This document shows positions 15,310 through 64,000 of a stretch of 64,000 bases of DNA, in pieces. The position numbers and the translations under genes were made by a program. The stretch spans positions 698,787 through 762,786 of the forward strand of contig JAAOMT010000183.1 of NCBI GenBank assembly GCA_016748015.1. The letters run 5' to 3'. Each line of letters opens with the position of its first letter. Position 1 is the stretch's first letter. This DNA is from Geosiphon pyriformis uo1. Lineage: Eukaryota > Fungi > Glomeromycota. The notes under the pieces were generated by a model. That model was given only the letters and a program-made list of their open reading frames with translations. It had not been told where the DNA came from and did no database searches.

Positions 15310-15338
15310 TTGTCAAAATTCACTTATTCCCTTATTGT

Positions 15339-16892: not shown

Positions 16893-16917
16893 GCACACCT
16901 CCAAAGGGTGAGAGTGC
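16880..16917 (+). promoter_or_regulatory. -1 ribosomal frameshift signal (T TTA AAC plus downstream hairpin)
   Basis: Heptamer is in X XXY YYZ phase, gag stop follows two codons later, and the -1 frame is open into the PR ORF. Confidence 0.75.
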
Positions 16918-19369: not shown

Positions 19370-19637
19370 NNNNNNNNNNNNNNNNNNNNNNNNNNNNNNN
19401 NNNNNNNNNNNNNNNNNNNNNNNNNNNNNNNNNNNNNNNNNNNNNNNNNNNNNNNNNNNNNNNNNNNNNNNNNNNNNNNNNNNNNNNNNNNNNNNNNNNN
19501 NNNNNNNNNNNNNNNNNNNNNNNNNNNNNNNNNNNNNNNNNNNNNNNNNNNNNNNNNNNNNNNNNNNNNNNNNNNNNNNNNNNNNNNNNNNNNNNNNNNN
19601 NNNNNNNNNNNNNNNNNNNNNNNNNNNNNNNNNNNNN
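19370..19637. other. Assembly gap (N run)
   Basis: 268 N. Confidence 1.
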
Positions 19638-20756: not shown

Positions 20757-21469
20757 ATATAAATAAATACACTATTCCCAAAACAGAGGTATTTTCAATC
20801 GACATAAACAATTATTTCCTGGATCAAAACATTCAAAACATTCAAAACATTTTCTATACTCTCCATAAGTACTGGATCAAGAACTATCCAAATGCTACTC
20901 TGACTATTGGAAAACAAACCACTATAACAGACAACAATGAAACTCACACTGTTATTAGACCAAAGAAAACAACTACCAGAAGAGAAAAAATTGGTGGCAA
21001 AATGGATAAATACCTGCTGGAAAGCATAACAACAGTAATACTTTCACCTTCCAGCACAATTGGAAAAACAATACAAAAAATCTTGCCCATAGACAAAAAC
21101 TTGTCATATAGAAGACAACTAGAACTCTATGGTTGTCTTGGTGAAATCATAGAAGACATGAAGCTCATGAAGAAAACAACTTCAGAGATACAAGTGGAAA
21201 TTTTGGGCATTATACGTTTAGATGTTCCAAGAGTTTTGACTATTGCAAAAAGAGCCAGAACTCTTATACAAAAATTTGGTCTCTTGGATACAAAGCTTAT
21301 TTTGCCTCAAGTACTATATACTCTATCCACAAAAGACTTCAACAAACTAGTTAGTTTTGAGTTAGACAAAACTCTTTACATAGACTATCCTATAAATAGT
21401 TTGATTTTGCTGGAGCTCAACCTCTTTGAAGAGGATGATGTTATGGTTGAAACACATAGTTTTTATTAA
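20708..21469 (+). CDS. ORF3 accessory protein of D; open frame that reads into the 3' LTR; start codon uncertain
   Basis: 253-codon open frame between IN and LTR, similar to ORF3 of A and F. Confidence 0.75.
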   Translation: MVICYDNTNPNDQQKLDINKYTIPKTEVFSIDINNYFLDQNIQNIQNIFYTLHKYWIKNYPNATLTIGKQTTITDNNETHTVIRPKKTTTRREKIGGKMDKYLLESITTVILSPSSTIGKTIQKILPIDKNLSYRRQLELYGCLGEIIEDMKLMKKTTSEIQVEILGIIRLDVPRVLTIAKRARTLIQKFGLLDTKLILPQVLYTLSTKDFNKLVSFELDKTLYIDYPINSLILLELNLFEEDDVMVETHSFY

Positions 21470-22116
21470 TTATCACATGTATTAGCCACTGATGTTATAT
21501 AATTAGCCACCCTATTTTTAGATAGTGATTGTTGACCTGATCAATGACCTGACCATTGACTTGATCATTGACCTGATCATTGACCTGGTCATTGACCATT
21601 TTAGATAGCTATATAAGCAATGATTCTCTTAGCTGTAGAAAGACATGATCAAAGTAATAAAATAAACAATATCAATTACTTCCTCTCATAATCGCTTATT
21701 CCCCTTTCCTTATCTTCAAGTATCTACTTGTTGGCATTCACATACCTTATCTTTTTCTCTTCTTGATTTGTATTTGTTAGAATTAGCCTGAGAAGCAATT
21801 GGCTTGCTCTTGTAATTTATTGAATAAAGAAACGATTGAAAAGTACAATGATACCTGTTATTGATTCTAAGAATCACCAAGTTGAGGCATAGAATAATAG
21901 CAGTGGTGTTATCTTGTTGACAATCACGGATTATTCCTCTATCTTCAGATTTAAGAAAAGATTAGCGACTATGATTTTTATGAGACTGATCATGCACATT
22001 GAATTCCTACTTATTCAATTTGCTCCCTTATTGTAATTCCTTCTTTGTTTATTTCCATCACCCTACAATACTGTTCTCCTTTACTATCCGTTAGCTTGTT
22101 ACTCCAACTCGTAACA
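21439..22116 (+). repeat. 3' LTR of D (678 bp) with an expanded 12-bp array
   Basis: Direct repeat of the 5' LTR plus 48 bp of ATTGACCTGATC-type units at about 21525-21598. Confidence 0.97.
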
Positions 22117-38013: not shown

Positions 38014-38198
38014 TAAAAAAAAATTAAATTAAATTAAAAAAAAATAAAAAAAATTAGTATTATTAATTGTCATGACCAAGAATAATTGGTTTAAATTATT
38101 ATTGTTCAAGACATTTTATGTTAAAAGCATTTAGCCAGGAATAAAAATAAGAAAATAATTAGTTTAAATTAAACACAAAAGTTATGAATTATGTATAA
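37598..38198 (-). repeat. E-family LTR fragment interrupted by copy C
   Basis: Inverse homologue of about 50820-51386; begins TGTTACAAATAAACTTGG. Confidence 0.8.
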
Positions 38199-39800
38199 TA
38201 TTATTGAAAATTTTTAGTTTCTTTTCTTGAATGTTGTTAATATTTGTTTGTTGTAAATTTACATTTTTTAAAAGTTAATGAATCTCTAATAACTGAATTT
38301 ATCTTTAAATTATCTCCTATAATTTATATTGCTGAACTTATAAATGAAATAGCTAATTCTATACCAGTTATTTTGTATAGTTACATTGTAGTAAATATTA
38401 ACTTTTTTCTAGGAATTGCTTGTCTAAAAGCTCACTAAAATATATAGTTACTTTGCTTTAAAAGTCAACTTTTCTACAAAAATTTTGTTTGTAGACTACT
38501 CTAATGTTTATAATAAAAAAAATAAAAAAAAATAAAAAAAATATAAAAGAAAATAGAATTTTATTAAAAAAATCGTTTTTCTATTTAGGCCTAGAGTTAC
38601 TAACAAATTTATTGAAATTGATAGCTAATCAATTTCAAAATATTAGTTGGATTTTAGAGAATTATCAAGTATAATAATCAAAGATTAAGTTTTCAAGTAT
38701 TTATTTTTATTGATTTGTAGAGATATGTAAAAGAATAATTGCTTCTAACTACAATATCTAAAATAAAAGATGCATTTTCTTAAAGAAAAAAGCTTTTTTT
38801 TATACAACTTGTTATAGTACTAGTTTATGAACTTGAACTTTTTTCTTTGCTATAATTTTAATAAACTAAAAATACATTTTAGCAAACTACAAGTTATTTT
38901 GATTAATTATTAACTATTTTGAAGAATTATTCATTATTTTAGCAAATTTCTACAAATTTTGGTAATAATACAAATGGGATTATTAATTAAATAGTAATTT
39001 TTGATAATTTGATTAAATAATAAGTAATAATTTGAAACAATATTAATATATGCTAATTAATAATAGGAATTATAAGAGTAATTTTATGCTAGTTAATAGC
39101 TAAAATTCTACTGGTAACATAATCTCTTTCTTAAGACTGAGTTCTATTAAAATTCAAGTATTATCTGTTATATTGAGATAGTAATCCAAAATAATTGTGG
39201 TAATTTGGTCTAAAAATTGTTGAAATTTCAGTTCTGTGAGTTTGCCAATATATTAAATCTTTGTTAATTGTAGTATTGGATTTTGTAAAACATTTTCACA
39301 AATGTTGAACAAGTTATAGAGTCTAAGTGTTGTTTTAAGTTTATAATAAATGTTTGTTAGTCCAGCTGTTGTTTTGAATTTATTGTAAATTTGTTTTTGT
39401 ATTGTTTTAGGAGTAAGAGTTGTTGCTTTAAGTTCCAGTTTTCATTTATAAAATGTTTTTTCAATATAAAAATATTTATAAATAAGAGTATATTTATTGT
39501 TTTGTTTATTGAAAAATAGTAGAAGTTTTTGTAAAGTTGTAGTATTTGGTAAAATATCAATAAGAACAATTAAAAAGTTTTCTTTTAAAGCTTGCTTCAA
39601 AAGTTTTGGTAATTGACTTCCAGAATAACTTTTTGTTTTTCTTTTATAAAGGTAATACTTTTGTAAATTAAGTACTATTGGTGTTGTAGTTTTTTTTTGA
39701 ATGTAATTAATTTGACTTTCATTAATTGTTATGAATAAGCCAGAAAGTGTTTTTAATGCTAACATTAATTTTTGGAATATTTGCTGAATATTTTAAGGAA

Positions 39801-39846
39801 TAATTATAATAAACAGTGACTAATTATAATAAACAGTGACTAATTA
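39801..39846. repeat. 20-bp tandem duplication
   Basis: TAATTATAATAAACAGTGAC twice. Confidence 0.9.
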
Positions 39847-39916
39847 GGAATAAAAATTTTGAAACAAATTTGAAAAGAATAAGGAAATTATTTTTGAATA
39901 TAGGAGTTTTATATGT

Positions 39917-40748
39917 TATTACTCATAGAATATAGAAAATATAGTATTATTAGTCAGTAGATATTAGCCAATCAGATGTAGACATAGTAATTGTAGAATT
40001 CCAAAATTCTTCTCAGAGGAATTGTAAGATTCCAGGAATTTCAGGATTCTCCGACAAGGAATCATAGGATTCCAGAATTCCAGAATTCCAAGATTCCTGT
40101 CGCAAGGAATCGAGGAATTGAGGAATCTCAAATATGTATATATAGCAGTAGCATTAAAAGCAGAAAAGACAAAATTAACACCAAGAATTCTTAGCTTAGT
40201 TACCACAATTCTCAAATAAATAATTATTCTTTATCTTAAATCAACTATTCACTATCAACACTTTATGTTGATAGTAATTGATACTTAACTACACTGGAAC
40301 AATAGCTCTTGATCACAGCTATTGATGGAATACTAACTTGCAAAATTGCCTTGGCTTATTTCCTTATATTTCTTTATTTTCTTTATGTTTCTTGATTTTG
40401 TTATTTGTGCACTAACCAATTGATTTAAAGTGCTGATTATTGATGTCAAGGATTATCTGGTAAAAGACCCCTGTGAGTGAGTAGAACATGTACAGAAGAT
40501 ACAGATTACTTACCAGAGGATTGCCAGCCACCAAGCTGAGAAAAAAATTGACAGACTTGTGAATCTGAGAAGCTATGGATAAAAACAACTATTAAATCTC
40601 TGTTCATTATACAAAAAACTCAACCCAAAACCTTCAGATATCAAAACCTTCAGATTACCAATACCAACACCAACAGAAATTAATCACTTTTGAGCACCGA
40701 GTTATGGGTTTAGTATTCACTCAACACCCCAAAAAAACATTTGTAACA
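39917..40748 (+). repeat. 5' LTR of F (832 bp) with CCAAT box, GAATTCC-type array and TATA
   Basis: Direct repeat of 49290-49934 plus about 187 extra bp. Confidence 0.95.
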
Positions 40749-40750
40749 TT

Positions 40751-40767
40751 TGGTACTTCCTGTAAGG
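40751..40767 (+). promoter_or_regulatory. PBS (transition-mutated version of the D PBS)
   Basis: TGGTACTTCCTGTAAGG versus TGGTGCTCCCTGTGAGG. Confidence 0.75.
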
Positions 40768-40810
40768 TATAATCTTACAGAGAACCAACCCCAACAAACA
40801 TCATCCAAAA

Positions 40811-43800
40811 GTGGCAAAATCAGAAAATATAGGAGCAAACCATTTAGGATTTGCAAAATCCTTATTTCAATACTATTGTCAACACTTGGGATTAAACCAC
40901 AATCATATATCCGCCGAATCAGCCTTTAATTTCTACATCAATAAAAAGATTTTCTCTTTGTTAGGAACACCAGTGAATACAGAATCAGCAAGGGAAACTT
41001 TCTACAGAGAATTAATTCAAAACACCAACCTACCAACAAATTATAATTTCACATCCATTATCACTGAGATCAACAAAGAAATTAAACATCACACTCAACA
41101 AAGATATCCAATTACATATGCTAGTAAAGGCAAAGGAAAACTACAAACACCAACAATAATTCCCAGAAAAATACAACTACCTACTTGGAAGAAGACAAGA
41201 GTTAAATCACCAACCAATTCATCTTATCACTATACATCCAGAAGCACCATCAACATTTTATCAACAGGCATATCCACATCAAACATGACATCAGTATTTG
41301 AACAATTCTCATTCCAAAGTAATCAAAGAAAAACAGAATTATTAGGACCATACGGCAAATACTTTGAAGGATTTAAATCGCAATCACCAATGCTCTCAGG
41401 AATTTGATCACTGCTGTCTCAACTGGACTTTGGAACCACTACCTCATGAGAACTATCTGAAAAAGAAGAGGAAGAAGAATCAGAAGATCAAGAATTTACT
41501 TACCAGAACCTGATCACTGAAAACTCGAAAGTTGAAACACTGAATCTTCAAACCCAGCAAAATTTAAATTTAGAAGACCTGGAAATTGAAACTCCAAATA
41601 TTCAAGAACCACTAAATCAAAACAATCAGAACCCCAATCTAATTAATCAACCAGACTTATCTTCCATGATTGTTATTAAACTACTACCAGTTGAACTGAT
41701 TGGCCAGCCACCACAACAACCACACCAGCAGATTCAACAACCACTAGTACTACTTCAACAACCATCACAACCCAACTTAGATCCAATGACATATGCACCA
41801 ATAGTCAAATTTGAGAAATTTACTAGCGAAGAGAATGACACTTAAGCTTGGATTAACAACATCACCAAAGCAATTACCATCAATAAATGGGATGATGCCA
41901 GAGCCATACAAGTCATCCTCTATTTTCTTAAAAACACGACAGACTCTTGGTATTACAGTCTAGCCCAAAAATCTCAAAACTTTAATGCCTTCAAATTGGA
42001 ATTTTTAAGGTATTTTAGTGATAACAACAGCATTAACTGTTTGGCAAGTACTTTCACCACCATCAAACAAGAAGACACAGAAGCAGTTACCACTTACTTG
42101 GGATGCTTCCATAGAAATCTGTGCCAAATTCAGGCAATTCAAGCTGACTACTTTACAGTGCCACAGATCTTGAACCAATTCATCCAAGGATTGCACAGTA
42201 GCATCCTCCAGTAAGTACATCCAATGCATCCAGTTGATCTTCCAATCGCCGTGACTCATGCCAGAGATTTTGAAGCCGCCGAGTTAGAAGCTAACCATGC
42301 CAAGCTGTGAATTTAGTAATAAATGGATTATCTAACCTGGATTCCAAGCTAAAACAATTCAGTGACAACATCAATTAGAAATTAGAGGGCTACTTAGCTG
42401 ACAATCATGCAATTTATTAACCACCCCAATAATGTAATAATTTAGGAAATGCAAATTGTTTCCAGAATCAATCACATCCAGGATCATTCACTAATTAGTC
42501 ATGACAGCCAGAAACATGTGTCTACTACAACTGTAGTAAACAAGAGCATATTAGGACAAACTACCATACTTATAGCAACCCATGATCGGGAAACCCTTAT
42601 CGAAACTCTGATCACCGGTTTCAGACTTTGAATCACCAATCCAATCAAGAGCAATATTAAAACACTTACCTGCCTATAATGCAGCCACTAATTTATCAGC
42701 CAACAATGTATCAACTGCCAATTTATCAGTCACAGCCACCAACAATTTATCAACTGCAGCCACAAGTCATTTATTAGCTGTAGTCTCAAGTAATTTATCA
42801 ATCCCAACAAGTTTAAATGCTGCACCAAAACTCAGTGATGATAATGTCAAGAAACCCGAGATCCAGAATTACCCAAAACTGGAGATCAGCGATGGTTATT
42901 CATCAACTAATCCCCAGTTCATCAGGCCAATAATCAAGATCTTGTTAGTGGGATTCAGGTATTGGTTCCACCCAAAACCCGAATTCCCAGAACTATTTAA
43001 GTCTCCTGGTTACCTCAGAAGATGTCATTTTCAACAACCCAGAACTTGATTAACAATCAACAATACATACCACCAGCAATTATTACCAATGACAAATTTT
43101 TAGCAGCCATCTTTCTGTTTGAACTCGAGGAAGTTACGTCAGTCTCCTTATTTAGTGGAGCAGCTCTGGAAGAAAAACCCATTACTGTCATGTACACTAA
43201 TGCAAAAGTTGATGGCCATTTCATAAAGTTAATTCTTGACAGTGATTCAGCAGGCAGCATTATCACATGACAATTCATGGATCAATTAGGTCACCAAGTT
43301 GATTAAGCTGCCAGTGCTAGAATCATCACTGCCAATGGCACCATGAAAACGCCTATTGGTGAAATTAACGACTTTCCAATTGAAGTTAATGACATTATTA
43401 CTCTCATTAAAGTCTTGGTAATGGAAGCAACCCAATACCAAGCACAGGTGAGCAATGATTGGTTGTCTAAAAACAATGCCATCCTCAACTAGACCACACA
43501 AGAGCTTTAGCTCAGCCAAAATAGCCAGTATACGCGAGTACTAGCAATGTGTGGCCATTTTAAACCTAACAATGTCATGACATCAGTGCCACTTATCAAC
43601 CTCAAGGAAGAAAAACTAAAGCCTACTTGGGAGGCATACCAGGTATCGTGGGCTGATGTCGACCACAATGAACTGCCACCAATACTCACCTGAGATGACA
43701 ATAATAATGGAAAGGAGAAACAAAGAAAAGAACCTATCTGTAAAACCACTATCAACACTTGGACCAATGACAAGACCACCACAAGTTAACACTAATACTA

Positions 43801-46800
43801 TCATGAGATGACAACTCCAAGAGAAAGCAAAGAGAGGAACTTATCTAGGAAACGGATGACCTGACCTGGACCAATAACGATGAAAGGGAACTGATACCAA
43901 GCTGGGAATGGGAAGAAAGCAACAAAGGGAAAAAAAAAGCAAAAGAAGAAGAGCCACTGCCAACAAATCCGTATACCTCCTATCAATACACAACACCACA
44001 ACAATTCACCTATCGCCGACCCAAACTAGTGTGCATCGATTGCGGCAAGAAATTGTCATCAATGGGCACATGCTGTGGCAATAACGAAGAATATCAGACA
44101 GCAACCAAGTTCTATTGCTGTGCATGCCTCGTTGAACACTTTGGAAGACCAAAACAAGTGGGAAAATGGGATAATACACCATGTTTAGCCTGTAGAGAAA
44201 CTCTTCTCAATGAAGGAATGTAGAACAACATTTCTGGGAGAGGAGGAATGTACAACATCTCCTGCCAATACACAATCCTTATCAGTGACTGAGTCGAGAA
44301 AGGGACACCAATAGAAGCTGCCTAGAGAAGAGCTGTATAACAATTGAACAGTTGTTCACACAACAACAATGAATTATGGTGGATGGCAATCGCCAAAATT
44401 GAAGGCGCGTCACCAGAAGAAATCAGGACAATTAAAAACAATCCACCAGAACCCATCGAGCTTGACTGAGATGCAGAGCCAGTCATAAATTTCCTGGAAC
44501 CAGAAGAGTTCCATAAACACTACCAAAACTTGGCACTCACTAGAGAAAAGCAAGAACAATGGCTAGCACAGTTGAATACAAGACTGTATCACCATTGTTT
44601 AATTTCCAGTAACTTTGAATATTGTGATGATTGTGATCTCATTTACAATTCACCACCACGCATAATCTACACAATTCCTGAAGAGGAAGAACCAATTAAC
44701 AGATGCGCATCGGAGTTGGAATCACCATTCAATCCCGATTCAAACTCTGACAACAACAACAACAAGAATAATGGTTACAGCTCCATTCAAAATGGCAATG
44801 ACAATGACAACAATATCAACTCAGATTCAAACTCTGACTCAAACTATAAACAATATATTGCACTTCTTGACCTCACCAAGGAACAAGAGCTGAAATGGTT
44901 CAGCGATAATAATGAAGATATCATGCCAGAACACGTGCATGATACTGATGCCAGATTTAACTTGAGGTATTCAGGAAAAGATGCCATCAAATTGGAACCA
45001 CATTTGTGCACCTGCATTGATCTGAAAAGAGTGCTGGAAATTCCAGCAACAACAATAGTTCAACTAGCATCCCAGAGTAGTTTAGCAAAAAGAGGGATTA
45101 ATATAAGAAAAGGAATAATTAATGCGGGATATATAGGAAATATCATTGTTGTGCTACAAAATGACTCAAAAAAGGCTTATATAATAGAGCCAAATGAAAA
45201 GATAGCACAGGCAATATTTTTACCTTTGGTTAAGATAGCTTAGTTAGTACCAGTGGGAAATAGGGAAGAGTTAGGAATAACAGCAAAAGGAATACAGGGA
45301 TTTGGATCAATGAGTAGAATAGATGTACCAGTTAATATGGCAGAGGAATAAATTGTTGGCCAAAGAAAAATTATCTCAACCAGTCAAGCTATTTCCATTC
45401 CACCATATAGCCAGTACATGCTAGCAATAGAAAGGAAAGAAAAAGAGCAAGAACAAATTTTTGAAGCTGAAGCAAACCTTTGTGAATCAGAAGAAATTGA
45501 ACTGATCAATCTCTACATATCAGCCAAAAGCTATAGCTGCATAAAAATTCCCATCTACAACAATACTGGCAATATTATCAACATACCAGAAGGAACCACC
45601 ATCGGATATTTAACCACAGAAATAGAAGACCAAATTCCAAACCCCATTCCAGACTTTTTACAACTTTGTGGATATGTCAACATCACATCACAAACAATCT
45701 ACGGATGAAACAAATGTTATTTGCTCCAACCAGAACAATTAAAACAAATGAACATGGGAAATTTAGATTCACTACAACATATGCAGCTCAAGATATTACT
45801 CAACAATTTCAATGACATCTTTGTTAGTGAAAACGAATTTGACAGAACTGACATCATCCAACATCAAATCAAGACTGAAGATGCAATGCCAATTAAACAG
45901 CAAGCATACAGGGTACCACCAGCCAGTCATGAAATCATTTGTCAAGAGATCAATTGAATGCTTGACAATGGACTAATCCAGCCATTTATGAGCTCATGGT
46001 TATTACCAGTGGTACTTGTCTGGAAAAAGAATGAAAAAATTTGCTTTTGTGTGGATTATAGAAAACTCAATGGAGTAATTCGTGGAGATAGCTATCCTAC
46101 TCCATGAATCCAAGAATTATTTGATGCTTTTGGTAGAAACAAATGGTTTTCAATATTAGACCTAAACAGTGGTTACTGGCAAGTAGCCATGGATTCAGCT
46201 GACAAAGAAAAGATGGCATTTACCACCAGAGAAGGGAATTTTGAATTTGAAGTAATGCCATTTGGCTTAACCAATGCACCAGCCACTTTCCAACGGCTAA
46301 TGGAAATTGTTTATACTGGCTTATTGTGGAAATCAGTAGTTGTATACTTGGACAACACCAATGTATTCTTAAAAACATTTGATGATCATCTTTATCATCT
46401 TCAATAGGTGTTCAAAAGACTAAAAAGAGCAGAACTAAAGTTAAATGCAACAAAGTGCTTTTTTGGCAAGACAGAACTAAAATTCTTGGAACACATAGTC
46501 AGCAAAGATGGCATCAAAACAGATCCAGAGAAAATAGAGATAGTAAAAAACTTTCCAGTGCTAATCAATATGACAGAACTGAAATCATTCTTGGGATTTA
46601 CTAGCTACTACTGACATTTTATCAAGAACTTTTCTAAGATAGCGCAGCCACTCAACCAAATGCAAACCAAGAATACAAAATATAAATGGACAAAAAGTTA
46701 GCAAAAAGCTTTTGATATTCTGAAAAAAAAGCTTATTCAAGCTTCAGTACTAATCTATCCAAATCACAGTAAACCATTCATCATCACCACCGATGCATCC

Positions 46801-47148
46801 AGCCAAGCATTGGGAGTGGTACTATCTCAGAAAGGACCAGATGGCAAAGAACATCCAGTAGCATATGTCAGCAGAGATTTAACACCAGCCAAAAAGAACT
46901 ATGGAACACCAAAACAAAAACACTTAGCAATATACTGGGCAGTCATGAAATGGAAAGAATACTTGAACCAGAAATTTGAAGTATACACAGATCACAAAGA
47001 ACTAACATCACTTCAAAAACAAGAATTTGGAGATGAAAGACAGTTAAGATGGAAAATGACACTCATGCCATATAATTATACTATACATTATAAAAAGGGA
47101 AAAGACAACAAAAATGCTGACAGTTTGTTGGAAATGAGACAAATTTAA
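40811..47148 (+). pseudogene. gag-PR-Cys-rich-dUTPase-RT-RNaseH polyprotein of F
   Basis: Capsid from ~41785, knuckle ~42520, ILDSDSAGS ~43235, dUTPase 44935-45320, RT YLDN(T) ~46345, RH ending NADSLLEMRQI*. Confidence 0.9.
44935..45320 (+). pseudogene. dut: dUTPase domain of F
   Basis: TDARFNL, QSSLAKRG, GIINAGYIG, KIAQAI, GIQGFGS. Confidence 0.9.
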
Positions 47149-47210
47149 GAATATTTCAACCCAAAAATATAACAAAACCAGAACAATATCAACAAGAAAT
47201 ATAACAAAAG

Positions 47211-48593
47211 ATGAACATACAAAAATATCAACAACTACAACATTATATAAACACTCAACAGTTCAAGGAGAATTTATCTCAAACAGAATGAAAGAGTATC
47301 AAACAACAATCAAAATATTTTATCACTCACCAAAATATATTTTATTGGAAAAATAGAAAAGATTTAGAACAACCAACCAGAGTAATTACAAAGCCAGAAA
47401 AAAAGACAATATTATTCAACATGCACTCAAATTCAACAGCAGGACACTTTCACAAAGAAGCAACCATGAAAAGAACCAGAAAAAGATACTATTGGCCATC
47501 AATGTATTCAGACATCATCCAATATGTTCAAAATTGTGATGCTTGTCAGTGAAGAGGAGGTATGAAACTTAGTAAACTATTAAGACCAATCAAAGTAGAA
47601 CAACCATTCGACCATATTGGAATTGATTTAGTCAGACCATTAACAATCACCAGCAGAGGAAACAGATACATAGTAGTAGCCATAGACTATCTCACTAAAT
47701 GGCCAGAGGCAAAAGCAATTCAAAAAGCAGATGCAGAATCCATTGCCGAATTCGTTTATTAAGATTTAATTTGTTGACACAAATGTCCAAAGGAATTATT
47801 ATCAGACCAAGGAACTCATTTTGTGAACAGAACATTAACAGAATTGAACCAAAGATTTGGAATTAAGAGACCACTATCATCACCATACTATCCACAAACC
47901 AACAAATTAGTCAAAAGATTCAACAGAACATTGTGTGAAGCAATAGCTAAGCTCAGCCAAGAAAACCAGAACGATTGGAATTTGTTGATACCATCAGTAC
48001 TATTTGCTTATCAGACAATGAAGCAAGATACCACACAAGCAACACCATTTGAATTAATATATAGTAGAACAGCAACACTATTAGTGGAAATAGAAGTCAG
48101 CACATACCCAACCAAACCAATAACAAAAGAGAATTTCAAAAACACATTGTTGAAAAGAACATATGACTTAATGGAAACATTAGAAAATAAACAATGAAAA
48201 GCAGCTAATAACATACAAAAATCACAAGAGAAACAAAAAGAAAGACATGATAACCAACTACCAGATAAACCAGTTGAATTCAAGATTGGAGACAAAATAC
48301 TATTACATCGTATAAAAGTGGAAAAACAATGGAGTGGAAAATTTGACCCCAAATAGAACAGACCATTTTACATAGAAGAAATTCTAGGAAATGGAGCTTA
48401 CAAATTAAGATTGAATAACAAAATCTTGACCAAAGCAGCACATGGAAATCAACTGAAACCATACCACCATATAGCATCATTATTTACTAGTAATATTCTA
48501 CAATTAAGAGTACAGAGAATACTAGTCCAACCAGATGAGATTTCACAAAATCTAGAACCAATCATTATTATTGACAACAACACATCTAATTGA
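47211..48593 (+). pseudogene. Integrase ORF of F with its own ATG
   Basis: ATG 47211 in frame with ORFs 47562, 47823 and 48411; MHSNSTAGH..CDAC, GIDLV, SDQG. Confidence 0.85.
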
Positions 48594-48616
48594 TCAACAA
48601 AAGAATATATAAGAAC

Positions 48617-49276
48617 ATGGTTGACGTGACAGAAGAGATCAGAGAAATGGAAATTACAGACAATATTTATTCACTAGCCCAACAAATTTTTCAATTAATC
48701 CAACACCAGGGGATAGAAATTACAATCAATCAACAAACCATCCATTACAAAAATACAGCAAAAATACCACAAAACAAAGCACAAAAAAAACTTGAAAATG
48801 TTGTTGACAAGATCATGACCAAGATAAAATTGGCCATGAAAGAACAACAAATAGTCGGATTATACCAAGAACTTACCAGAGAAACTTGGACTTGGTGGAC
48901 ACAACAATTTCCAAAAAACTATTGTCATTTTCACTTGGGATAACACGTAAATATCCAGAATTTGTACATCAACAAAACAAAATGGTTATTTGACACAACA
49001 ATACTAAGACAACTGGAACAATTTGTGACAAAAAACAATCTAACCACACAAGCTCGAGCCATTTACCAGCTATATATGGGATTTTAAGACTGACCAGAAA
49101 TCTTATTCAACACAGCAATGGATACAGTTATGAGTAATTAATTGGGAAAAATGACCAATACTCAATTTGAAGAACTACAAACTAAAATAACACAAGTAAT
49201 ACTCGAAAAAAAAGTTCAAAAAATAATTCAAGAAAGAAAATTAAAGGAATTAGATTTTGATGGAGCTCAATATTAA
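48617..49276 (+). pseudogene. ORF3 accessory protein of F
   Basis: One frame from ATG 48617 to TAA 49276 with four internal stops of transition type. Confidence 0.75.
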
Positions 49277-49289
49277 AAGGAGGGAATAA

Positions 49290-49934
49290 TGTTACTCATA
49301 GAATATAGGAATCTCAGATATGTATATATAGCAGTAGTGTTAGAAGCAGAAAAGACAGAATTGACACCAAGAATTCTTAGCTTAGTTACCACAATTTTCA
49401 AATAAATAATTATTCACTATATCAAATTCACTTGTCACTATCAACACTTCATGTTGATAGTAATTGATACTTAACTACACTGGAACAATAGCTCTTGATC
49501 ACAGCTATTGATGGGATACTAACTTGCAAAATTGCCTTGGCTTATTTCCTTATATTTTTTTATTTTCTTTATATTTCTTGATTTTGTTATTTGTGCACTA
49601 ACCAATTGATTCAAAGTGCTGATTATTGACATCAAAGATTACCTGGTAAAAGACCCCTGTGAGTGGGTAGAACAAGTACAAAAAATATGGATTACTTGCC
49701 AGAGGATTGCCGGCCACCAAGCTGAGAAAAAAATTGACAGACTTGTGAATCTGGGAAGCTATAGATAAAAACAACTATTGAATCTTTGTCCATTATACAA
49801 AGAACTCAACCCAAAACCTTCAGATATTAAAACCTTCAGATTATTAATACCAACACCAACAGAAATCAATAGCTTTTGAGCACCGAGTTACAGGTTTAGT
49901 ATTCACTCAACACCCCAAAGAAACACCTGTAACA
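49290..49934 (+). repeat. 3' LTR of F (645 bp; U3 array absent)
   Basis: TGTTAC...GTAACA after the PPT. Confidence 0.95.
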
Positions 49935-50397
49935 ATGTTTTTGGGTTTGGGTATTTTTTGTAATTATTTACTATTTTTGTTTTACATTTGTAGATTACTA
50001 AAAAAGTTATAATATTAAGTTAAGTATTTAAGTTTGGGTGTTGTTTTATTACAACTATTGATTTTAAGTTTCGGAAAATATCTTTAAAATTAATTAAAAA
50101 AAATGTGTACCAATTTGTGAAATTAATAATTCAGGTTTGTTTCTAAAATAATAATATTTCAATCAATTTTTATGTACAACTTTTGCTAAGACTTTGTCAT
50201 CAAGTCTTGACTTATATAATCTATTGCTTAAAATTTCATAAATATAGAATGGTTTATCCTATTTATGTTCAATTTTTCTACTCTATTGTTTTTTAGTCTT
50301 AGTTTTGTATAAGAAAACTTTGTTTTCAATTTTAAATTTATTAATGACTAATGACAATTTGTTGTTATGTTATTTTTTTTGTTGATCTTAAGAGTAT

Positions 50398-51386
50398 TAT
50401 TACTTAAATAGAAAAACTAATTCAAAGTTATGAAAAAAACATGACCAAAAACATGATGACATAAAATAACACAGAATAATGTGAAAAAACACAAAATAAT
50501 ATGTAATAACTCAAGATAATATAATACAAAACTTGATAACATATTATAGCATGAAATAACTAGTTAAAATATAGAATAACTAGTAATAACATAAAAAAAC
50601 AAAGTAATAATAGAAATAGCAAAGCAATAACTAGCAAGAACAAAACAATTAAAAAGCAATTCTGTAGAACAAAAAAATATATAAAAATAAGTAGTTATAG
50701 AAGTTAAAAAAATAGCAAAAAAGAATCAATTTCTTTTTACCTGTATTTGTTACATATCTTTTGGTTCTACTTATATTTTATTTTACTAAAATAAAAAAAA
50801 TATTAAACAATTTCAAAATCTATGTTTATATGATTTTCACATTCACGTATTTCAGCTAAATTAGTTTTGTTTTTACTTTTGTTCCTGGCCAGATGTTCTT
50901 AGCATAAATGTTTTAAACTCTTAACAACTTGAATCATAGTAATTGACAATATTAATTTATTTTTATTTTATTTTATTTTATTTTATTTTATTCTCTTTTG
51001 TGGAGTGGCAACATAAAAAAATTGACTGTCTGGAAATAGATTTTATAATAGCTTAGTAAAAGAAAAAAGCTCCTTCTAGGTTTAAATATTAATATTATCT
51101 TAGTAGCTTACTAAAAGAGTAAAAAGACACCATTAAACCCTAATAACTGTACTTGTTAGCTTGAAAAAGATAGTTCACATTTACATACAAAAAGTTGTAA
51201 CACCAGAAAATATTTTTCTATGCCTTATAACCAAAAAATTCTATGAATAAATTCATAACAATTAAAAAAAACCTTCAAAAACTAATAACTAGAAACAGTC
51301 ATATTGTAAAGATTATTTAAAGACATTATTACTTAAACTAAAGCACCAAATATTACCACCATACTCCACCAAGTTTATCTGTAACA
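50398..51386 (+). repeat. Solo LTR (family E) inserted in the integrase of C; degenerate 4-bp TSD GTAT/ATGT
   Basis: TATTAC...GTAACA termini; the flanks rejoin as A-family integrase sequence; contains a (TTTTA)n tract. Confidence 0.85.
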
Positions 51387-54300
51387 ATGTTTAATATGAG
51401 TTGCTGTTATCTGCAGTTTTTTTCTAAAGTATTAAGAAGGATGTAGACTTTTTATTGAAGTGTTTTTTGAAAGTTTTCTTTAGTAATTGGTTGTACTGGA
51501 TATGTTTCTACTGTAAAATTAATTGGTAATATTGCTGTTCTTCTATAGATTAAATTAAAAAGTATGTGTTTTATGGTATTTTGTTTTAGTGTTTATATGC
51601 TAATAATACTGATAGAATAAAAATATTCTATTTCTATTCAAAATTAATTTAGACTTTGGCTAATAATTTACATAATGTTCTGTTAAACTATTTTACTAAT
51701 TCTTTTGTTTGTGAATAATATAGTAAAAATAGAAATTTAATATTAAACTATTTACTAATTTCTTGTATCAAGTTGTTTACAAAGTGTGTTCCTTAATTAA
51801 ATAAGAGTTTAATTGAATATCTATATCTACAGATAATGTCTTTATAGATAAAATTTACTACTGATTTTACATCTGCTTTTTAAATGGCTCTGGCTTCTGG
51901 TTATTTGGTAAGATAGTTTATTACAACTACAATATAATAATTTTCTTGGTTTGTAATAAGTAGTGGTTTGACTAAATTAATACCAACTCTGTCAAAAGAT
52001 TGTTTAACTTTAATTGAATTTAATAGTTTTATAGAACAAATTCCTCTTTTTTTTTGACAACTATCATAAGATTTTACATATTGTCAAATATTTTTTTACA
52101 TGTGATGCCAAAAATAATGTTCAAAAGTTTTTTGAATTGTTCTATAATAGATCTGTGTACATGTTGTATAATATTGTTTTTTTTATTTTCTTGTATTAAT
52201 CTAAATAAGTTAGATAGGTTTCTGTAATTTTAATAGTAAATTTTGTTGTAGTAAATAAAACATTGTCTAAATTTGTGTTGTAATCAGTGTTTTTCAACTG
52301 GAAACCAGTTTTCTGGTATAATGAGAGTCTCTAAGTAGTTTTTAATATTGTTGTAATTTTTGGAGTCTATTGTTTTTTTTGTTAATTGTTGTTAAGTTAG
52401 TAATTTGTTGATGTTGATTTTAATTTTGCCTTATTCTAAAAAGACTATCTATATTTGTATGTAATTTGTCTGATTTGTGATACACAATATATTTGTAGTC
52501 TACTAGAAAATCAAATTATTAAAATTGTTTGGCACTAAATTCAGAGTTTTTTTTGTTAAGCCATTTAAGACTAATATTATCTGTGATAATGTCAAATTGA
52601 AATTCATTTTGGAAATATTGTTAAAAGTGTTTTAAAGCCCAAATAACAGCTGCTGCTTCTAATTTAGTGAATTTATATTTGAGTTCAATTGGTTTAAAAG
52701 TTTTACTAGTATAAACAATTACTTATTCATTGTTATTGTTATTCAATTGTGATAAAATGACACCAAAAACTATGTGTGAAGCATTGGTGGCTAGTTGAAA
52801 TCTTTTGCTAAAATCTGAATATACAAGAATTGGGGCTGTAGTAAGTTTTTTCTTGAGAATGTCAAATATTTATTGTTAAGCTTGTGTCTATTAATATTTC
52901 ATGTCTTTTTTAGTTAACTGGTTAGGTGATTTGGCAATTTTCGAAAATTCTTTGATAAATTTTTGGTAATAGAAGGCTAATCCTACAAATTTTTTTAGTT
53001 CTGTTGTGTTTTAGAGAATTTTGAAATTTTTAACAGCACTAATTGTTTTTGGATTGGGTTGGATTTCATTTTTGCTAACAATATGTTCAAAAAAAATTAA
53101 ACTTGTTTTTTCAAAATAATACTTTTCAATATTTAACTTTAATTCTGCTTTTTGTAATTATTGAAAAACTTTTTGTAGGTGAATTAAATGAGCTTTAAAT
53201 ATTGGAGAATAGACATTAGTATTGTCAAAATAAACAACAACTGATTGCCATAAGAGTTTTTTATATACAATATTCATAAGTTACTGAAATATTGCTGGTG
53301 TATTGCAAAGTCTAAAAAACATTATGTTAAACTTGTAATTTTTTTTTTAAGTAGTAAATACTGTTTTCAGGTAATTTTTGAGATCTATTTTGACTTGTTA
53401 GTATTCACTTTTCAGATTTAAAGTTGAAAAAAACTTGGCTTTTCTCAGAGTATTTAGCATGTTGTTAATTTTTAATAATAAATAAGTATTTCCAATTGTA
53501 ATATTATTCAGCTGTTAATAGTTTACACAAAATTTGATTTTGCCATTTTTCTTTTTAACAAAAATCACTGGTAAAGCCCAAAAGCTTTTTAATAATTAGA
53601 TAAAACTATTATTGAACATTTATTGAACTTTTTCTTTAATGAATTGGTGACTGGCAGATAAAACTCAGTAAACTTGTTAATGTTTTGGTAAAGAATCTTT
53701 TGTATAGATTTGATGTTGAACAATATCAGTTTTTTCCAGATTATTGTTGTTTTTTGTAAATATATCAGTATATTTAGCAATTAACTGTTTCAGTTGTTTT
53801 TGTTGTTGGAGTTTTAAGAGACCCATGTTGATTCAAGAAAGTTTTTTTTCTAAGATATGGTAGTTTTTAGTAGTAATAGTAATGTTTAGATTTGGAAGTA
53901 GAGTATGTCTCACAATTTTGATGAAATTAATGACAATTTAAAAGATTTTATCTTAAAAGATATTGCTATATATGATTTCAATTTCTAATTTGTTTAATAA
54001 AACAATGGAATAGTTGTTGGAATTATAAAATGTAACTCAAAATTTTTTTATTTCTTTTGAAATATAAACATTTGGAATTGAAATTTTATGCTTTAAACAG
54101 ATTTGTTTATTTGACTCAAAGATTTGTTGGGTGGTAATAGGCTTTGGGCAATTGTAGATTTCATGATGTTTTCCAAAAAATAAGATAGTAATTGGTTGGA
54201 AAAGTTGAAGAATTTGGTGAGATTTATTTTGTGTCTTAAGAGCTATGTCTACTAGAACTGTGAATTGTCTAATTAAACCAAAATCTTGGGTCTTTTTTTT

Positions 54301-54832
54301 ACTTTTTTCTAATTGTTCTCTGTTGTTAATTAATTGTAAACTTAAGATGTTAATTAAAAGTAAATAAATAGCTTGTGCAATTTTTTTAACATGCTTTATT
54401 TTGAATGGTTTTTTGGTTTTATTTTGTAGCATGATGATAATGTCTCTAGTGTATTTTGCATCTATAATTTTTTCTCTAACATTGATTTTTTTGTTTGCCA
54501 ATAATGATTGAGAAGCAATTTGAACTATTGCTTTTAGTGGTATTTTAAAAACAATTCTGAGATTAAGTTTTGTTAACAATTTTGGTTAAAAAACCAGAGT
54601 ATTTTTTTCTGGATATTATAAATCATATCCAGCATTCATTTTGTGAGCTTTTTCTGGCTTGATTTTTTGACCATTATTGTCGAAATATTTAAGTTGTATG
54701 GCTAGTTGATTCTTAATGAAATAGATTGAAATTGTTGTAATTTTTTCTTCTGACTTAAGTTCTGTAAACTCAATTTCCTCTTGATTATTTTTATTGAACA
54801 AAGTAATATTAAAAGCATAGCATTTTAAACAC

Positions 54833-57800
54833 TGTTACAGGTGATTATTTGGGGTGTTAATACAAATAACAAACCCATAACTTGGTGTTTAATAGTTAGT
54901 ACAGTTGGTATTATCTAAAGATTTTTATAATCTGAAGATTTTGATTAAGTTTTTTGTATAATGGACAGAAATTCAATGTTAAGATTCTGTTGTAATGTTT
55001 TTAGTTTCTTTTCCAACTTATGAGTTAATATGTATTGTTGTTTATAGCTTCCCAGAATATCTATTTTATTAATTTTTTTCTTAGCTTAATAACTGGTTTT
55101 CTGGTAAGTTATTCCTTAGTTCTAAGTGTCTATTCTTATTTCTGGGTCTTTTACCAGTTTTATTCCTGATGTTAATACTTTAGTACTTTAATTTTTAATC
55201 AATTAATAAATAAAACAAAAAAGAAATAAAAGAAAATAAAGAGATAAACCAAGACAAGAAAGAGTTAGTATCTCATTAATAGCTGTAATCAAGAGCTATT
55301 TGTCTAGTGTAGTTAAGTATTGACAATTATCAACATGAATTGTTGATAGTGAAAAGACAGATTGCAATATTAAATAAGTATTTTATTAATATTTGATGTT
55401 TTCACTTTAAGTCATAGAATATTATCATATAAAAAGATGAATTTGAAATAGAAACTAGAGATTCTAAACTAAGAATTTTTTTTTTTGCTTCTAATATTAC
55501 TACTATATATATAAATTTTATTGTATAAAATTTCTTAAATTTCTTAATTCTTTAGCCAGAAATTCTGTAATTCTTTAAGAGAGATTTTGGAATTCTGAAA
55601 TCCTGCAATTTTTCATACAGAAATTCTGTAATTCTGGAATCCTGCAATTCTTCTAAGAAGAATCCTGGAATTCCACTTTTATTATGTCTATTCTGATTGG
55701 CTAATTTATGTACTAATATATAATTCTTATATTTTATGAATAATATTATTCTCTCTTTTTAATATTAAGCTCTATTGAGATCTTCTATATTTCTTAACTT
55801 TCCATCTTTAATTAACTCTTAAACTTCTTTTTTGAAAATTACTTGGGTTATTTTGATCTGTAATTTTTCAAATTGGACATTGGTAATTTTACCCAATTGG
55901 TTAATGGTAATTGTATTCATTGCTAGATTAAGTAATATTGTTGGTCAATCTTGAAATTCTATATATAGCTAATATATGGCTTGTGTTTGTGTAAACAAAT
56001 TGTTCTTCTCCATAAATTGTTTAAGTTGTTATAGTATTGTTGTATTGAATAATTGTTTTGTTTTATCAGTGTACAAGTTTTGAATATTCAAGTTTTGTCC
56101 TAAGTAATAATAACAAAAGTTTTTTAGAAATTGTTGTATCCACTAATTTCAAGTTTTTTTTATTAATTTTTGGTAAAGTACAGCTGTTTCTGGTATTTCT
56201 ATTGACAATTTTACTTTTGTTATTATTTTGTTTATAGTGTTTTCTAGTTTTCTATGCACTTTGTATTGGGTTTTTTTATTATTATTTTTGTATCAAATAG
56301 TTTGTTGGTTAATTGTGATTTCTATGTTTTGTTGTTGAATTAGTTGGAATAGTTGTTGTGTAAATAAGTAGATATTGTTGATAATTTTTATCTTTTATTG
56401 TTGCTTTTGTTGTGTATACTGTGTTTTTATATATTATTCTGTTTAATTAATTTAACATGTTTGTATTGATAATTATAATTGGTTTTAGATCTTATGAAAT
56501 CTTATCTGGTTGGACTAATATTTATTGTACTCCCAGTTGTGGAATATTACTGGTAAATGATGATGCTGTATTGTTATATGGTTTCAATTAATCTTTATGT
56601 ATTGCTTTAGCTAAGATTTTGTTGTCTTATCTTAATTTATAAGCTCTATTTCTTAGAATTTTTTCTATATAAAATGATCTATTCTATTTGAGATCAAATT
56701 TTCTATTCTATTGTTTTTCCATTTTGGTACAATGTAAGAATACTTTGTCTCCAATTCTAAATTCAACTGGTTTATTTGATAATTGGTTATCATGTCATTT
56801 TTTTTGTTTTTTTTGTAACTTTTGAATATTATTAATTGTTTTTTGTCTTTTGTTTTTTAATTTTTCTATTAAGTTATATGTTTTTCTTAACAATGTTTCT
56901 TGAAAGTTGTCTTCTCTTATTGGTTCAGTTGAATATGTATTGACTTTTATCTTAACTGGTAATATTGCTGTTCTACTATAAACAAGTTCAAATTATGTTG
57001 CTTATGTGGTATCTTGCTTTATTGTTTGATAAGCAAATAGTACTAATAGTATAAACAGATCTTATTTATTCTGGTTTTTTTGACTAATTTTGGTGATTGC
57101 TTTACACAATATTTTGTTGAACCTTTCAACTAAACTGTTTGTTTGTGGATAATATGATAATAATAATGGTCTTTTGATTTCAAATCTTTGGCTTAATTCT
57201 GTTAATGTTCTGTTTACAAAGTAAGTTTCTTGATCTGATAACAATTTTTTTGGACATTCATATCAGCAAATCAAATTTTAATAAACAAATTTGGCTATGA
57301 ATTCTATATTTGTTTTTTGAATTGCTTTTATTTCTGGCCATTTTGTGAGATAGCTCATGACTACTACTATATAATGATTGCCTCTGCTGATTATTGTTAA
57401 TAATTTAACTAAGTCAATTCCAATTCTATTAAATAGTTGTTTCACTTTAATTGGTCTTAATGGTTCACTGGATTTTGTTTCTTCTCTTTTCTAATAAACA
57501 TCACAATTTTGAATGTATTAGATAATGTCTGAATATATTGATGACCAATAATATTTTTTTCTGGTTTTTTCTATAATTGCTTCTTTATAAAAATATCCTA
57601 TTGTTGGATTTGAATGCATTTTGTATAATATTTTTTCATTCTTTAGTTCTGTAATTACTCTGAATGATTGATCTGAATCTTTTCTGTTTTCTAATATAGT
57701 ATATTTTAGTAAATAATAAAATATTTTAATTGTTGTTTTATGTTGTTTTGTTTCTTTTGAGATAATTTTTTTTTGAACTGCTGAGTATTAGTATAGTATT

Positions 57801-60800
57801 GAAATTGTTGATATTTTTGTGTATTCATTTTTTGTTATATTTTTGAGTTGAAATGTTCTTAGATTTGTTTTATTTATAACAAACCATTAGCATTTCCGTT
57901 TTTTTTTCCTTTTTATAATATACTGTATATTTGAATAATAAAAGTTCTATTTTTTATCTGACATAATAGTCATCTCCAAATTCTTGTTTTTGAATTAATG
58001 TTAATTCTTTGTGATCAGTGTATACTTCAAACTTTTGGCTTAAATACTCTTTCCATTTGATAATTGCCTAATAGATAACTAAGTATTTTAGTGCTAGTGT
58101 TCTATAGTTCTTTTCAGCTGGACTCAAATTTCAGCTGGCATAAGCTACTAAATGTTCTTATTTATCTGGTTTTCTCTAAGATAATATGGCTTTTAATGCT
58201 TGACCAAATGCATTAGTAGTGATAATAAATGGCTTGCTGTAATCTAAATAGATTAATACTGGTGCTTGAATGAGCTTTTTTCTTAGTATATCAAAAGCTT
58301 TTTGCTGAGTTTTAGCCCATTCATATTTTACATTCTTGGTTTGGAACTGGTAAAGTAGTTGAGTTAGTTTGAAGAAATTCTTGATAAAATGATAGTAATA
58401 TCTAGCAAATCCCAAGAATGCTTGTAATTTTATTAGATTTGTTGATACTAGAAAGTTTTTTATTATTTTAATTTTATTTGGATTTGTTTTGATGCCATTT
58501 TTGCTTACAATATGTCCTAAAAATTTCAGTTCTGTTTTGCTGAAGAAGTATTTAATGGCATTTAACTTTAGCTTTGCTTATCTCAATCTTTCAAACACTT
58601 GCTGTAGATAATAAAGATAATTATCAAATGTTTTTAAGAACATATTGGTATTATTTAAATATATGACTACTGATTTCCATAGTAGTCTAGTATAAACAAT
58701 TTCCATTAGCCATTAGAATATGGCTGGAGTATTGGTTAAGCCAAATAGTATTACTTTAAATTCAAAGTTTTTCTCTCTAATAGTGAATGTGGTTTTCTTC
58801 TTATCAGCTAAATTCATGGCTACTTGCCAGTAATTACTATCTAAATCCAGTATTGAAAACCATTTCTTTTCTTCAAAAATGTTAAATAATTTCTGAATCT
58901 GTAGAATAAAATAGCTGTCTCCATGAATAACACTATTGAGTTTTTTATAATCCACACAAAAGTGGTCTTTCCATTTTTTTTGTGAGCTAGTATTACTGAT
59001 AATAACTATAAACTCATTGATAGTTGAATTAACCTATTGTTTAATATCTGGTTGATTTTTTTTCAGATGATTTTATGGCTTGCTGGTAGTACTCTGTATG
59101 TCTTTTGTTTAATTGGTATTGTATCTCCAGTTTTGATTTAATGTTGGATAATGTTAGTTCTGCTAAATTTATTTTCACTGGCAAAGATGTCAGTAAAATT
59201 GTTGAGTAGCATCTTGAGTTGCATACATTGAAATGGGTCTAAATTTTCCAAGTTTATTTGTTTTAATTGTTCTGGTTGTAGCAAATAACATTTTTTTGTT
59301 CATATATTGCTTGTGATATGATATTTATATATCTGTACAGTTGTAAAAAATTTGGAATGGTGCTTGGTAGTTGGTTTTTAACTTCAGTACTTAAGTATTT
59401 AATAGCAGTTTCTTTGAGTATTTCAATGATGTTTCCTGTTGTATTATAAATGAGAATTTTGATGTGTTTGTTATTTTTAGCCAGTATATAGAGATTGGTA
59501 ATAGCAATCTTTTTTGATTTACAAATAGTGGCTTTTATTTTGAAAATTTGAGATTGATCTCTTATTTTCTTTTCTATAACTATTAAATACTAATCATATG
59601 ATAGAATAAAAATTGATTGACTGGTAGAAATAATTTCTCCTTTATTAATTGGTTTCTCTTCCATCATATTAACTGATATGTCTATTCTATCTGTGGATCC
59701 GAATTCATTTTTTTCTTTGGCTGTGATCTTTAATTTTTTCCTTTTTTTACTAATACTAACTGAACTATTTTTATTAGAGATAGAAATATTGTCTGTACTA
59801 TCTTTTTATTTGGTTTAATAATATATTCTTTTTCCAAGTCATTTTATAGCATTGTAATAATATTTTCTATATATTCTGCATCAATTATTCCTTCTTTAAT
59901 GTTGATTTCTTTTTGCACTAGACTAGATGTTAAGGCTAATTGAATTATGATTGTTGCTGGAATTTCCAGTGCTAATTTCAAATCTATACAAATGCATAAA
60001 TGTGGTTTCAATTTGATAGCATCTTTTTTTAGATATCTCAAATCAAACTTTGCATCAGTATTATGCACTCATTCTGGCATAATCCCTTTATTTTTATCAC
60101 TAAACTATTTGAGTTTTTGCTTTATTAACAAATTTGAGAACATGATATATTGTTTGGGGTTATAATCAAAGTTTGAATTGTCATTGTTGTTGTTATAGTG
60201 AACAGAGTTAGAACCATTATTGTTGTCATATTAGAGTTTGAATCAAGATTGAATTTTGATTCCAATTCTGCTGCACATTTGCTGATTGGTTTTTCCTTTT
60301 TGGAGATCAAATAAATTATGTATAGTGGTAGATTATAAATAAAGTCACAATCATTACAATATTAGAAATTGCATAAAATTAAACAATAATTACATAAATG
60401 AATGTTGAATTATTTTAAACATTGCTCTTACTCTTGTCTGGTTGGTGCTAAATTTTAGTAATATTTGTAGAATTTTTTTGAACCAGCTTTGATGTCAAAA
60501 AAAGTGTCAGAGTTGAGAATAAAAAAAGTTTCCATTAGTTCTAGTGAATTATTCTTAATTTCTAATATTTTGCTGAGCAAAACATCTTCAACTTTGGCAC
60601 TTGCCATTCTTTAGATCTCGTTTTTATTGTGTAAATAACTGTCTAAGCATGACAAAACACAGTTTTAGATGGCATTAAAAGGCATTTCTCTACTGACTCA
60701 ATCACTTATGAGGACTATGTATTAATATAAAGTGTTACATGTTCTTTTTTAACCAGGAATGTCATTTCACATTTTTTTGTCAAGTAATTGTTCTCCACAA

Positions 60801-63800: not shown

Positions 63801-64000
63801 ATATCCTGTTTTAATTGCAATCAGTTTCTCTATTTTATGTGTTGGATATTAATGATAATGTACTGAAGGTTTTCTCTTGATGTTGTAATGTAAGTCTTCT
63901 TTTTAATTCTAGTTGTTTTTGTATATTGTGTACTCCTTCCCAAAGGCTAATCTGAAATCTACCTGCTGTTTGAGGTCTTTTCTAAGGCTATCCTTACAAT
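54833..64000 (-). mobile_element. Decayed F-family gypsy copy G (3' LTR 54833-55745, ORF3, IN, RH, RT, dUTPase ~59690-60070, PR, gag); 5' end outside window
   Basis: Minus-strand ORFs at 57062, 58176, 58713, 59844 (DAKFDL..GIIDAEY) and 62451 match F. Confidence 0.92.

Follow-up and report, generated by a model that had tools for sequence, protein, structure and literature searches.

The DNA analysed here, a window of 64,000 nt from contig JAAOMT010000183.1 of Geosiphon pyriformis uo1 (positions 698,787 to 762,786), is a nest of decayed long terminal repeat (LTR) retrotransposons within AT-rich DNA, and our subject is one of them, element F, a decayed Ty3/gypsy-type element on the forward strand (39917-49934). 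F is flanked by the target-site duplication (TSD) ATGT (39913..39916, with the second ATGT at 49935-49938). Its 5' LTR (39917..40748) starts with TATTAC, decayed from TG, ends with GTAACA and holds a TATA-like site at 40137, and its 3' LTR (49290..49934) has a 187-nt deletion relative to the 5' copy. Behind the 5' LTR lie a primer-binding site (PBS; 40751..40767) that starts with TGG and resembles the PBS of copy D (described below), and a decayed first open reading frame (ORF1; 40769..47148) in the order gag, protease (PR), Cys-rich insert, dUTPase, reverse transcriptase (RT) and RNase H, with its start placed by inference, no ATG remaining near the PBS. Within ORF1 we recognise the Retrotrans_gag capsid domain (41846..42211; Pfam PF03732, E 5.8e-10), an aspartic protease with the motif LDSDS at 43235 (43150..43560; its homologue in copy A matches PF13650 at E 1.1e-8), the Cys-rich insert, which is common to A and G and matches no Pfam family above noise (43900..44650), a dUTPase domain (44920..45310; PF00692, E 2.9e-11) and a Ty3-type RT and RNase H (45829..47127).

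ORF1 closes with a TAA at 47146-47148, and past an ATG-free spacer of 62 nt (47149..47210), which has an extra 32 nt resembling a local duplication when compared with B and G, there follows ORF2 (47211..48593), a free-standing integrase with its own ATG at 47211, its stop at 48591-93, an HHCC region, core and GPY/F-like end, and no chromodomain. ORF3 (48647..49276), a small soluble helical protein of a lineage-specific family, ends at the polypurine tract (PPT), which together with the pre-PPT motif GGAGCTCAA, shared by many relatives, occupies 49262..49289. A TATA box (48606..48613), also present in B and G, lies 41 nt 5' of the ORF3 ATG, and its position and the alignment to relative locus L005, B and G make 48647 a more likely start for F than 48617.

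The two LTRs of F are 92.2% identical over 645 aligned nt, with transitions accounting for 43 of the 50 differences, and internal stops number 13 in the frame from the Cys-rich insert to RNase H, 6 in the integrase and 4 in ORF3. The gag-PR part carries frame changes that, as read by eye, G and A lack, so that the single ORF1 of F is reconstructed rather than seen. Since F is rich in G-to-A stops, decay as the origin of the split between RNase H and integrase had to be excluded.

Integrase outside Pol in the window and its relatives

Four further copies in the window allow the junction to be read: A (1..7341, forward strand), of another LTR family with a layout as in F, cut by the window edge and apparently inserted in B; B (7342..11850, forward), of the F family and running from RT to the 3' LTR; C (38195..54826, reverse), of the A family, broken up by F and adjoining G; and G (54827..64000, reverse), of the F family and cut by the window edge. 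Their LTRs fall into two groups, A/C and B/F/G, between which the only cross-matches are AT-rich stretches of at most 58 nt (C against G or B). All five readable copies (A, B, C, F and G) have the ORF1 stop at a homologous codon directly behind RNase H, which with the LTR comparison confirms the original prediction that two families with unrelated LTRs have one layout. The spacers from stop to integrase start, read by eye, are 39, 30, 49, 62 and 30 nt in A, B, C, F and G, respectively; F and G have ATG as the start codon, the other three ATA.

Relatives were taken from a scan of metagenome DNA, as the best 80 of 572 loci by likeness to the stand-alone integrase, near-duplicates included. The RNase H end is visible in 51 loci, in all of which the integrase is split from it and in none fused; in the other 29 either the contig ends too early (16) or the RNase H end was not detected (13). 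The same junction script scores 11 more distant loci as fused, and in six RT-selected representatives within the clade the ORF ends 1-13 aa past RNase H. Moreover, when 789 contigs of run X1 were aligned on the junction, no other letter reached 3% at the stop TAA or at the integrase ATG, with 12 differences of at least 3% in total and with variable bases on both sides of the stop. A protein search limited to 253-805 aa returned 651 stand-alone integrases, the best 120 of which are mostly 400-450 aa long with a common N-terminus, 119 of them beginning with Met and most at the position of the F ATG. Searching for longer proteins with RNase H gave 3 fused among 213 candidates, all outside the clade, and a search of viral contigs gave only three weak bacterial-type integrase matches.

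If the breaks were products of decay, G-to-A changes in dead copies would have converted Trp to a stop codon, and F does contain many such stops. However, relatives L023, L037 and L067 are split despite a long open ORF1 (1,370-1,621 aa), the stand-alone integrases are numerous and, among the best 120, mostly alike in length and with a common N-terminus, and the 51 split loci together with the invariant stop in run X1 refute decay, to which we give next to no credence. That integrase and ORF3 are separate genes we regard as nearly certain.

In profile comparisons the RT has Ty3 RT as its top match (474 bits, with 320 for the runner-up and 197 for foamy Pol). A tree of concatenated RT-RNase H and integrase sequences (34 of 47 rows, near relatives having been dropped; LG+G4, no mixture model) unites 15 split elements and the single metagenome protein P0327 with 97/96 support. 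The fused proteins P0333, P0338, P0339 and P0348 fall just outside, and elements with integrase before RT lie far off; the outgroups were drawn from database matches rather than from reference elements of GyDB/REXdb clades such as Ylt1, Osvaldo and 412/mdg1. Because all other gypsy elements are fused, the split is best taken as the derived state. Among the nearest fused relatives are gypsy polyproteins of animals and of metagenomes, and those relatives that have a species name come from Rhizophagus irregularis, R. clarus and Cetraspora pellucida. Two observations weigh against this picture: trees of RT only are star-like and unstable, the clade receiving 80 SH-aLRT or no resolution, and P0327, nested in the split clade as partner of L083 (100/99), has RT-RNase H, integrase and ORF3 in one frame. 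The best reading of P0327 is that it fused again or that its gene was miscalled. The junctions and the concatenated tree nevertheless support the original proposal of a distinct lineage in which integrase lies outside Pol. Separately, four lineage-type integrases (L084, L085, L086 and L095) stand in bacterial assemblies, namely soil metagenome-assembled genomes and an endosymbiont of arbuscular mycorrhizal fungi, and are probably contamination from a host or neighbour.

The lineage shares with the non-chromodomain branch of Ty3/gypsy (Metaviridae) two LTRs ending in CA, the PBS, PPT and TSD, the order gag-PR-RT-RNase H-integrase and a Ty3-type RT. It differs in that the integrase, in 51 of 51 loci and in all five window copies, is a gene of its own and not the C-terminal end of Pol (P0327 is the lone fused record), and in the lineage-specific ORF3 behind it. 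None of the 120 integrases listed has a chromodomain (PF00385), nor does any ORF3 scanned from the window or from the relatives. Integrase is likewise away from its usual place in the elements that we take to be Gmr1-like gypsy and Ginger/GIN. However, Gmr1-like elements have integrase before RT and form a separate clade, whereas here it follows RNase H, and Ginger elements are DNA transposons, whereas the integrases of this lineage stand behind RT-RNase H in LTR-type elements, with RNase H directly 5' in 51 loci and a PPT and LTR start 3'. The available passages of PMC3248453 and PMC5911963 describe integrase as part of Pol, and dUTPase-bearing fungal gypsy elements (PosPlaTy3-5, Phanerochaete, Tuber Tmt1) are, in the excerpts available, described with an intact Pol, unlike the split here. 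The premise of the original prediction that gypsy elements have no third ORF except env proved too strong, as the available part of PMC2864245 reports fungal gypsy elements with extra ORFs without known function and, in PosPlaTy3-5, a dUTPase between PR and RT. Its failure to recognise a described group agrees with the literature searched, where we found no description (Repbase and subscription journals lying outside the search), including the passages available from PMC6839031, PMC8647823, PMC11952901, PMC2774666 and PMC11943222. Taken together, this genome plan within Ty3/gypsy is real and broad, and apparently undescribed.

Junction statistics and integrase translation

Across 45 loci the gap between the ORF1 stop and the integrase ATG ranges from -20 to +429 nt (median 62) and all three phases are represented (18/16/11); two longer gaps, of 827 and 943 nt, include another open frame that follows an internal stop. 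The ORF1 stops are TAA (22), TGA (10) or TAG (9). Such a mixture of phases and stop codons makes one frameshift or readthrough signal unlikely, and it bears on whether a fused Pol might still be made by way of a stop-removing intron or recoding. Lineage-type fusions of RNase H and integrase do occur in P0327 and in some NCBI gene models of R. clarus and C. pellucida, 11 of the 45 junctions keep the phase, as do those of window copies A, B and G, and one subclade (four loci) has a TGA-CTA between PR and RT. However, joined models such as P0324, P0326 and P0429 cut out the conserved end of RNase H as well as the Met of the integrase, as predicted stop-bridging introns would, the overlapping junctions are too tight for an intron, and a further in-frame stop is present in A, B and G, so that continued production of a fused Pol strikes us as very improbable.

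The surroundings of the integrase ATG point elsewhere. In 68 loci its context is strong, with A at -3 in 68% vs 32% of internal ATGs and G at +4 in 82% vs 28%, and 27 spacers of 10-170 nt contain 4 ATGs vs 21.7 expected. In 17 short-gap loci the ATGs just 5' of the integrase start, which lie in RNase H codons, are not depleted (9 vs 8.8; 18 vs 8.8). This normal density places the start of the ATG-free zone close to the ORF1 stop, a location that fits a terminating ribosome that scans on and is hard to fit to a capped integrase mRNA. Ten of the 45 junctions overlap, four of them as ATGA, and in this they recall the stop-restart arrangements of Cryphonectria hypovirus 1 (CHV1), victoriviruses, SART1 and LINE-1, in which the second ORF begins at or after the first stop; those are RNA viruses or non-LTR elements, and the spacer, given as 63 nt for LINE-1 in the passages available from PMC5972666, varies widely in our lineage.

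An integrase mRNA of its own, made from a TATA-less internal promoter or by a splice near the ATG in the manner of foamy-virus pol or retroviral env, would imply three separate RNAs. It would suit the free length and T-rich composition of the spacers, the strong start context and the fact that long spacers keep ATGs away from their last ~80 nt. Yet the 17 loci with short gaps or overlaps, where ATGs within 30-60 nt upstream are at or above background, leave almost no room for a leader. Moreover, TATA boxes 10-110 nt 5' of the integrase show no excess (10 of 61 loci vs 9.0 expected), there is no common donor word, branch-like words near the ATG are only scattered, and several spacers contain no AG whatsoever. 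We consider a separate mRNA possible, though unlikely.

We lean, with modest confidence, towards the reading that F is a dead copy of an element in which ribosomes would finish ORF1 on the full-length RNA and restart at the next ATG to make integrase, with ORF3 coming from a short TATA-driven subgenomic RNA of its own. The original prediction had suggested polycistronic or subgenomic expression, and the sequence holds signs of both, polycistronic for the integrase and subgenomic for ORF3. An integrase that is not a member of Gag-Pol would have to reach the particle by binding RNA or Gag, and ORF3, with its basic helical core, may be a nucleic-acid-binding helper of that entry. Several points weigh against termination-reinitiation: three spacers of 192-429 nt have ATGs at chance level, which scanning restart leaves unexplained; the last 30 nt 5' of the ORF1 stop are also ATG-poor in 15 mid-gap loci (2 vs 7.4); and a hairpin, described next, lies in the scanning path of 24 of the 80 loci. 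The passages at hand from PMC5972666 and PMC5902531 further describe reinitiation after so long an ORF (here 1,500-2,000 codons) as normally inefficient, and according to the former viral reinitiation needs stop and start close together, compared with the median spacer of 62 nt here.

The hairpin is bulged, about 38 nt long with the loop CANNGYGA, and lies always in the same place 5' of the integrase ATG, its loop 17-49 nt before that codon (e.g. L037:4444-4512; L085, upstream of 236 by eye). Its stem covaries, with two-sided changes in 5 of 6 pairs and 98% of cells paired. Resemblances to a hammerhead, an iron-responsive element or a T-box did not hold up by eye. Such a structure might recruit ribosomes for internal entry, or serve as an operator or packaging site for ORF3 or integrase in a protein-gated element. 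The covarying stem and its fixed position speak for a role of this kind, as does the company of ORF3, which is present in 15 of 15 hairpin loci with a classed downstream region, the hairpin occurring in 0 of 8 ORF3-less loci. This link, however, is based on related sequences, Rfam returned no match for the hairpin in 15 loci, and being missing from the window (best E 0.44) and from 56 of the 80 loci it is not a general mechanism; we judge internal entry or protein gating doubtful.

ORF3 and its putative promoter

ORF3 occurs 3' of the integrase in 31 of 43 loci with at least 600 nt downstream, 28 of which were used to build its profile, and the window ORF3s join this family by profile comparison (93%; D 62%). 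The expectation that every member has ORF3 did not hold, since we did not find the family in 8 loci with at least 900 nt of downstream sequence. Its codons vary most at third and least at second positions (15 closest pairs listed). The proteins are 119-241 aa long and soluble (highest 19-residue hydropathy 1.32; 30 of 30), with a basic core (median +9), an acidic N-terminus and an all-helical predicted structure (pLDDT 96), and ORF3 is thus not a membrane glycoprotein of the env/errantivirus kind. No consistent Pfam or PHROG family, no sequence match in PDB and no fold match (Foldseek E >0.2; VIA best Z 4.8) was found. ESM Atlas neighbours (RegA PF01818 and closterovirus coat; 0.93, only 134-139 shared features) were treated as leads only and not adopted. 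Elsewhere in the clade the place of ORF3 is occupied by a NUDIX hydrolase ORF (L028:1945-2886, E 1.4e-10) or a helix-turn-helix ORF (L017:6546-6941).

A TATA box lies 10-110 nt 5' of ORF3 in 22 of the 31 loci vs 5.1 expected (dinucleotide shuffles: mean 4.0, maximum 10), mostly at -35 to -63, and the 708 nt 3' of these boxes contain no ATG. ORF3 is therefore likely to be transcribed from a promoter of its own, as judged from sequence. The box is also present in 6 of 9 held-out loci, two of these six being near-copies of first-set loci. Against a promoter stand the post hoc nature of the pattern, which was first spotted by eye in the same data, the near-palindromic form of the box, for which the minus strand is also positive in 17 of 31 loci, its partial location within integrase codons, and the A ORF3, which has no TATA box.

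The arrangement resembles that of caulimoviruses, in which long abutting or overlapping ORFs of the 35S RNA of cauliflower mosaic virus (CaMV) are read by reinitiation and the last ORF, the transactivator TAV/P6 made from a 19S RNA, has a TATA promoter in the spacer before it; on our side the likeness is one of sequence. In the available passages of PMC5902531 the CaMV TAV is expressed from a separate TATA promoter and drives reinitiation irrespective of distance, and a TAV-like protein outside Caulimoviridae is stated as not known. Caulimoviruses differ in having no integrase, and ORF3 has no significant match to TAV/P6 or to any viral fold (Pfam, PDB, BFVD). By analogy, a caulimovirus-like plan could have evolved independently, with reinitiation switched on by ORF3 as an RNA-binding transactivator of new fold with its own promoter, and with the hairpin serving in some members of the clade as the site for ORF3, but this is improbable. 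Spacer length is independent of the presence of ORF3 (gaps in ORF3-less loci are 2, 27, 82 and 192 nt), which does not favour a transactivator, and the ORF3-less members and the P0327 fusion suggest that ORF3 may instead be a helper of integrase or of RNA packaging.

Variable parts, neighbouring elements and implications

Two further features of F do not extend across the lineage, although the original layout implied that they would. The Cys-dUTPase insert is family-specific: the dUTPase has no match in 46 relative ORFs, 10 of them spanning PR to RT, and so marks only the A/C and B/F/G families. A single ORF1 is contradicted by 7 of 18 loci in which PR and RT occupy separate ORFs. One subclade has an in-frame TGA-CTA between PR and RT (L014:2882-2887, L015, L053 and L057), which we take to be a likely readthrough site, and in L050 PR and RT lie in overlapping ORFs. 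In seven intact-looking loci RNase H is followed by a tail of 219-343 aa. A tail of 200-340 aa in L023:4348-5163, L037, L041, L051, L067 and L069 contains the invariant motif C-x3-C-D..N-H-H-x-H-x2-C-x2-C; it matches no Pfam family and gave a poor model (pLDDT 45.6). In L050:2357-3013 a P-loop thymidylate-kinase-like domain is fused behind RNase H (Pfam E 0.0017). As dUTPase, the joining of PR to RT and the RNase H tails all vary, the clade is modular, with the separate integrase as its constant mark.

Copy D (14657..22116, forward) represents a third family, its LTR matching neither A/C nor B/F/G. It was said to share ORF3, PBS, pre-PPT motif and a 4-bp TSD with the others, and this stood: the TSD is TTAT (in an ATT-repeat context), the PBS is F-like, the motif is present, and its divergent ORF3 shows weak homology (hhalign 62%, E 7e-5; a hidden Markov model score above 500 of 500 shuffles). 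The rest of the layout did not carry over, as no dUTPase domain was found in D, its gag and PR sit in different frames, and its RNase H/integrase junction falls in a run of N (19370-19637) and is unreadable. PBS sequences are of at least 3 types among the families (window 40749-40770 and 15288-15310; L004, L006, L013, L017, L029, L031 and L079), an unlikeness that suggests several primer tRNAs.

Elsewhere in the window, an extra A/C-family piece with integrase end, ORF3 and LTR start lies at 12517-13968 on the reverse strand, and another decayed retroelement, perhaps of the tyrosine-recombinase type, at 22248-29100 on the forward strand, with weak matches to RVT_1 (25180-26424) and type I RNase H (27319-27831). 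The end of that element, 28431-29099, matches 13917-14558 in reverse orientation. An open frame of 375 aa at 30219-31346 (forward) starts with a weak chromodomain match (E 0.0005).

By making integrase within Pol, LTR elements and most retroviruses load the enzyme into the particle in step with RT. Translation and packaging must proceed otherwise in a large and old clade that has given up the fusion of integrase to Pol. The split clade likely accounts for many stand-alone 'DDE-type integrase' genes and intron-bridged Pol models in Rhizophagus annotations, and surveys that use the rve domain as a mark of Ginger, as in the available passages of PMC5751038, may count some of its members. ORF3 adds a conserved protein family that matches no known fold. 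If it were a transactivator, it would have no precedent outside Caulimoviridae, and the integrase would be packaged in trans. The clade also offers many natural constructs with which reinitiation after very long ORFs can be tested in fungi.

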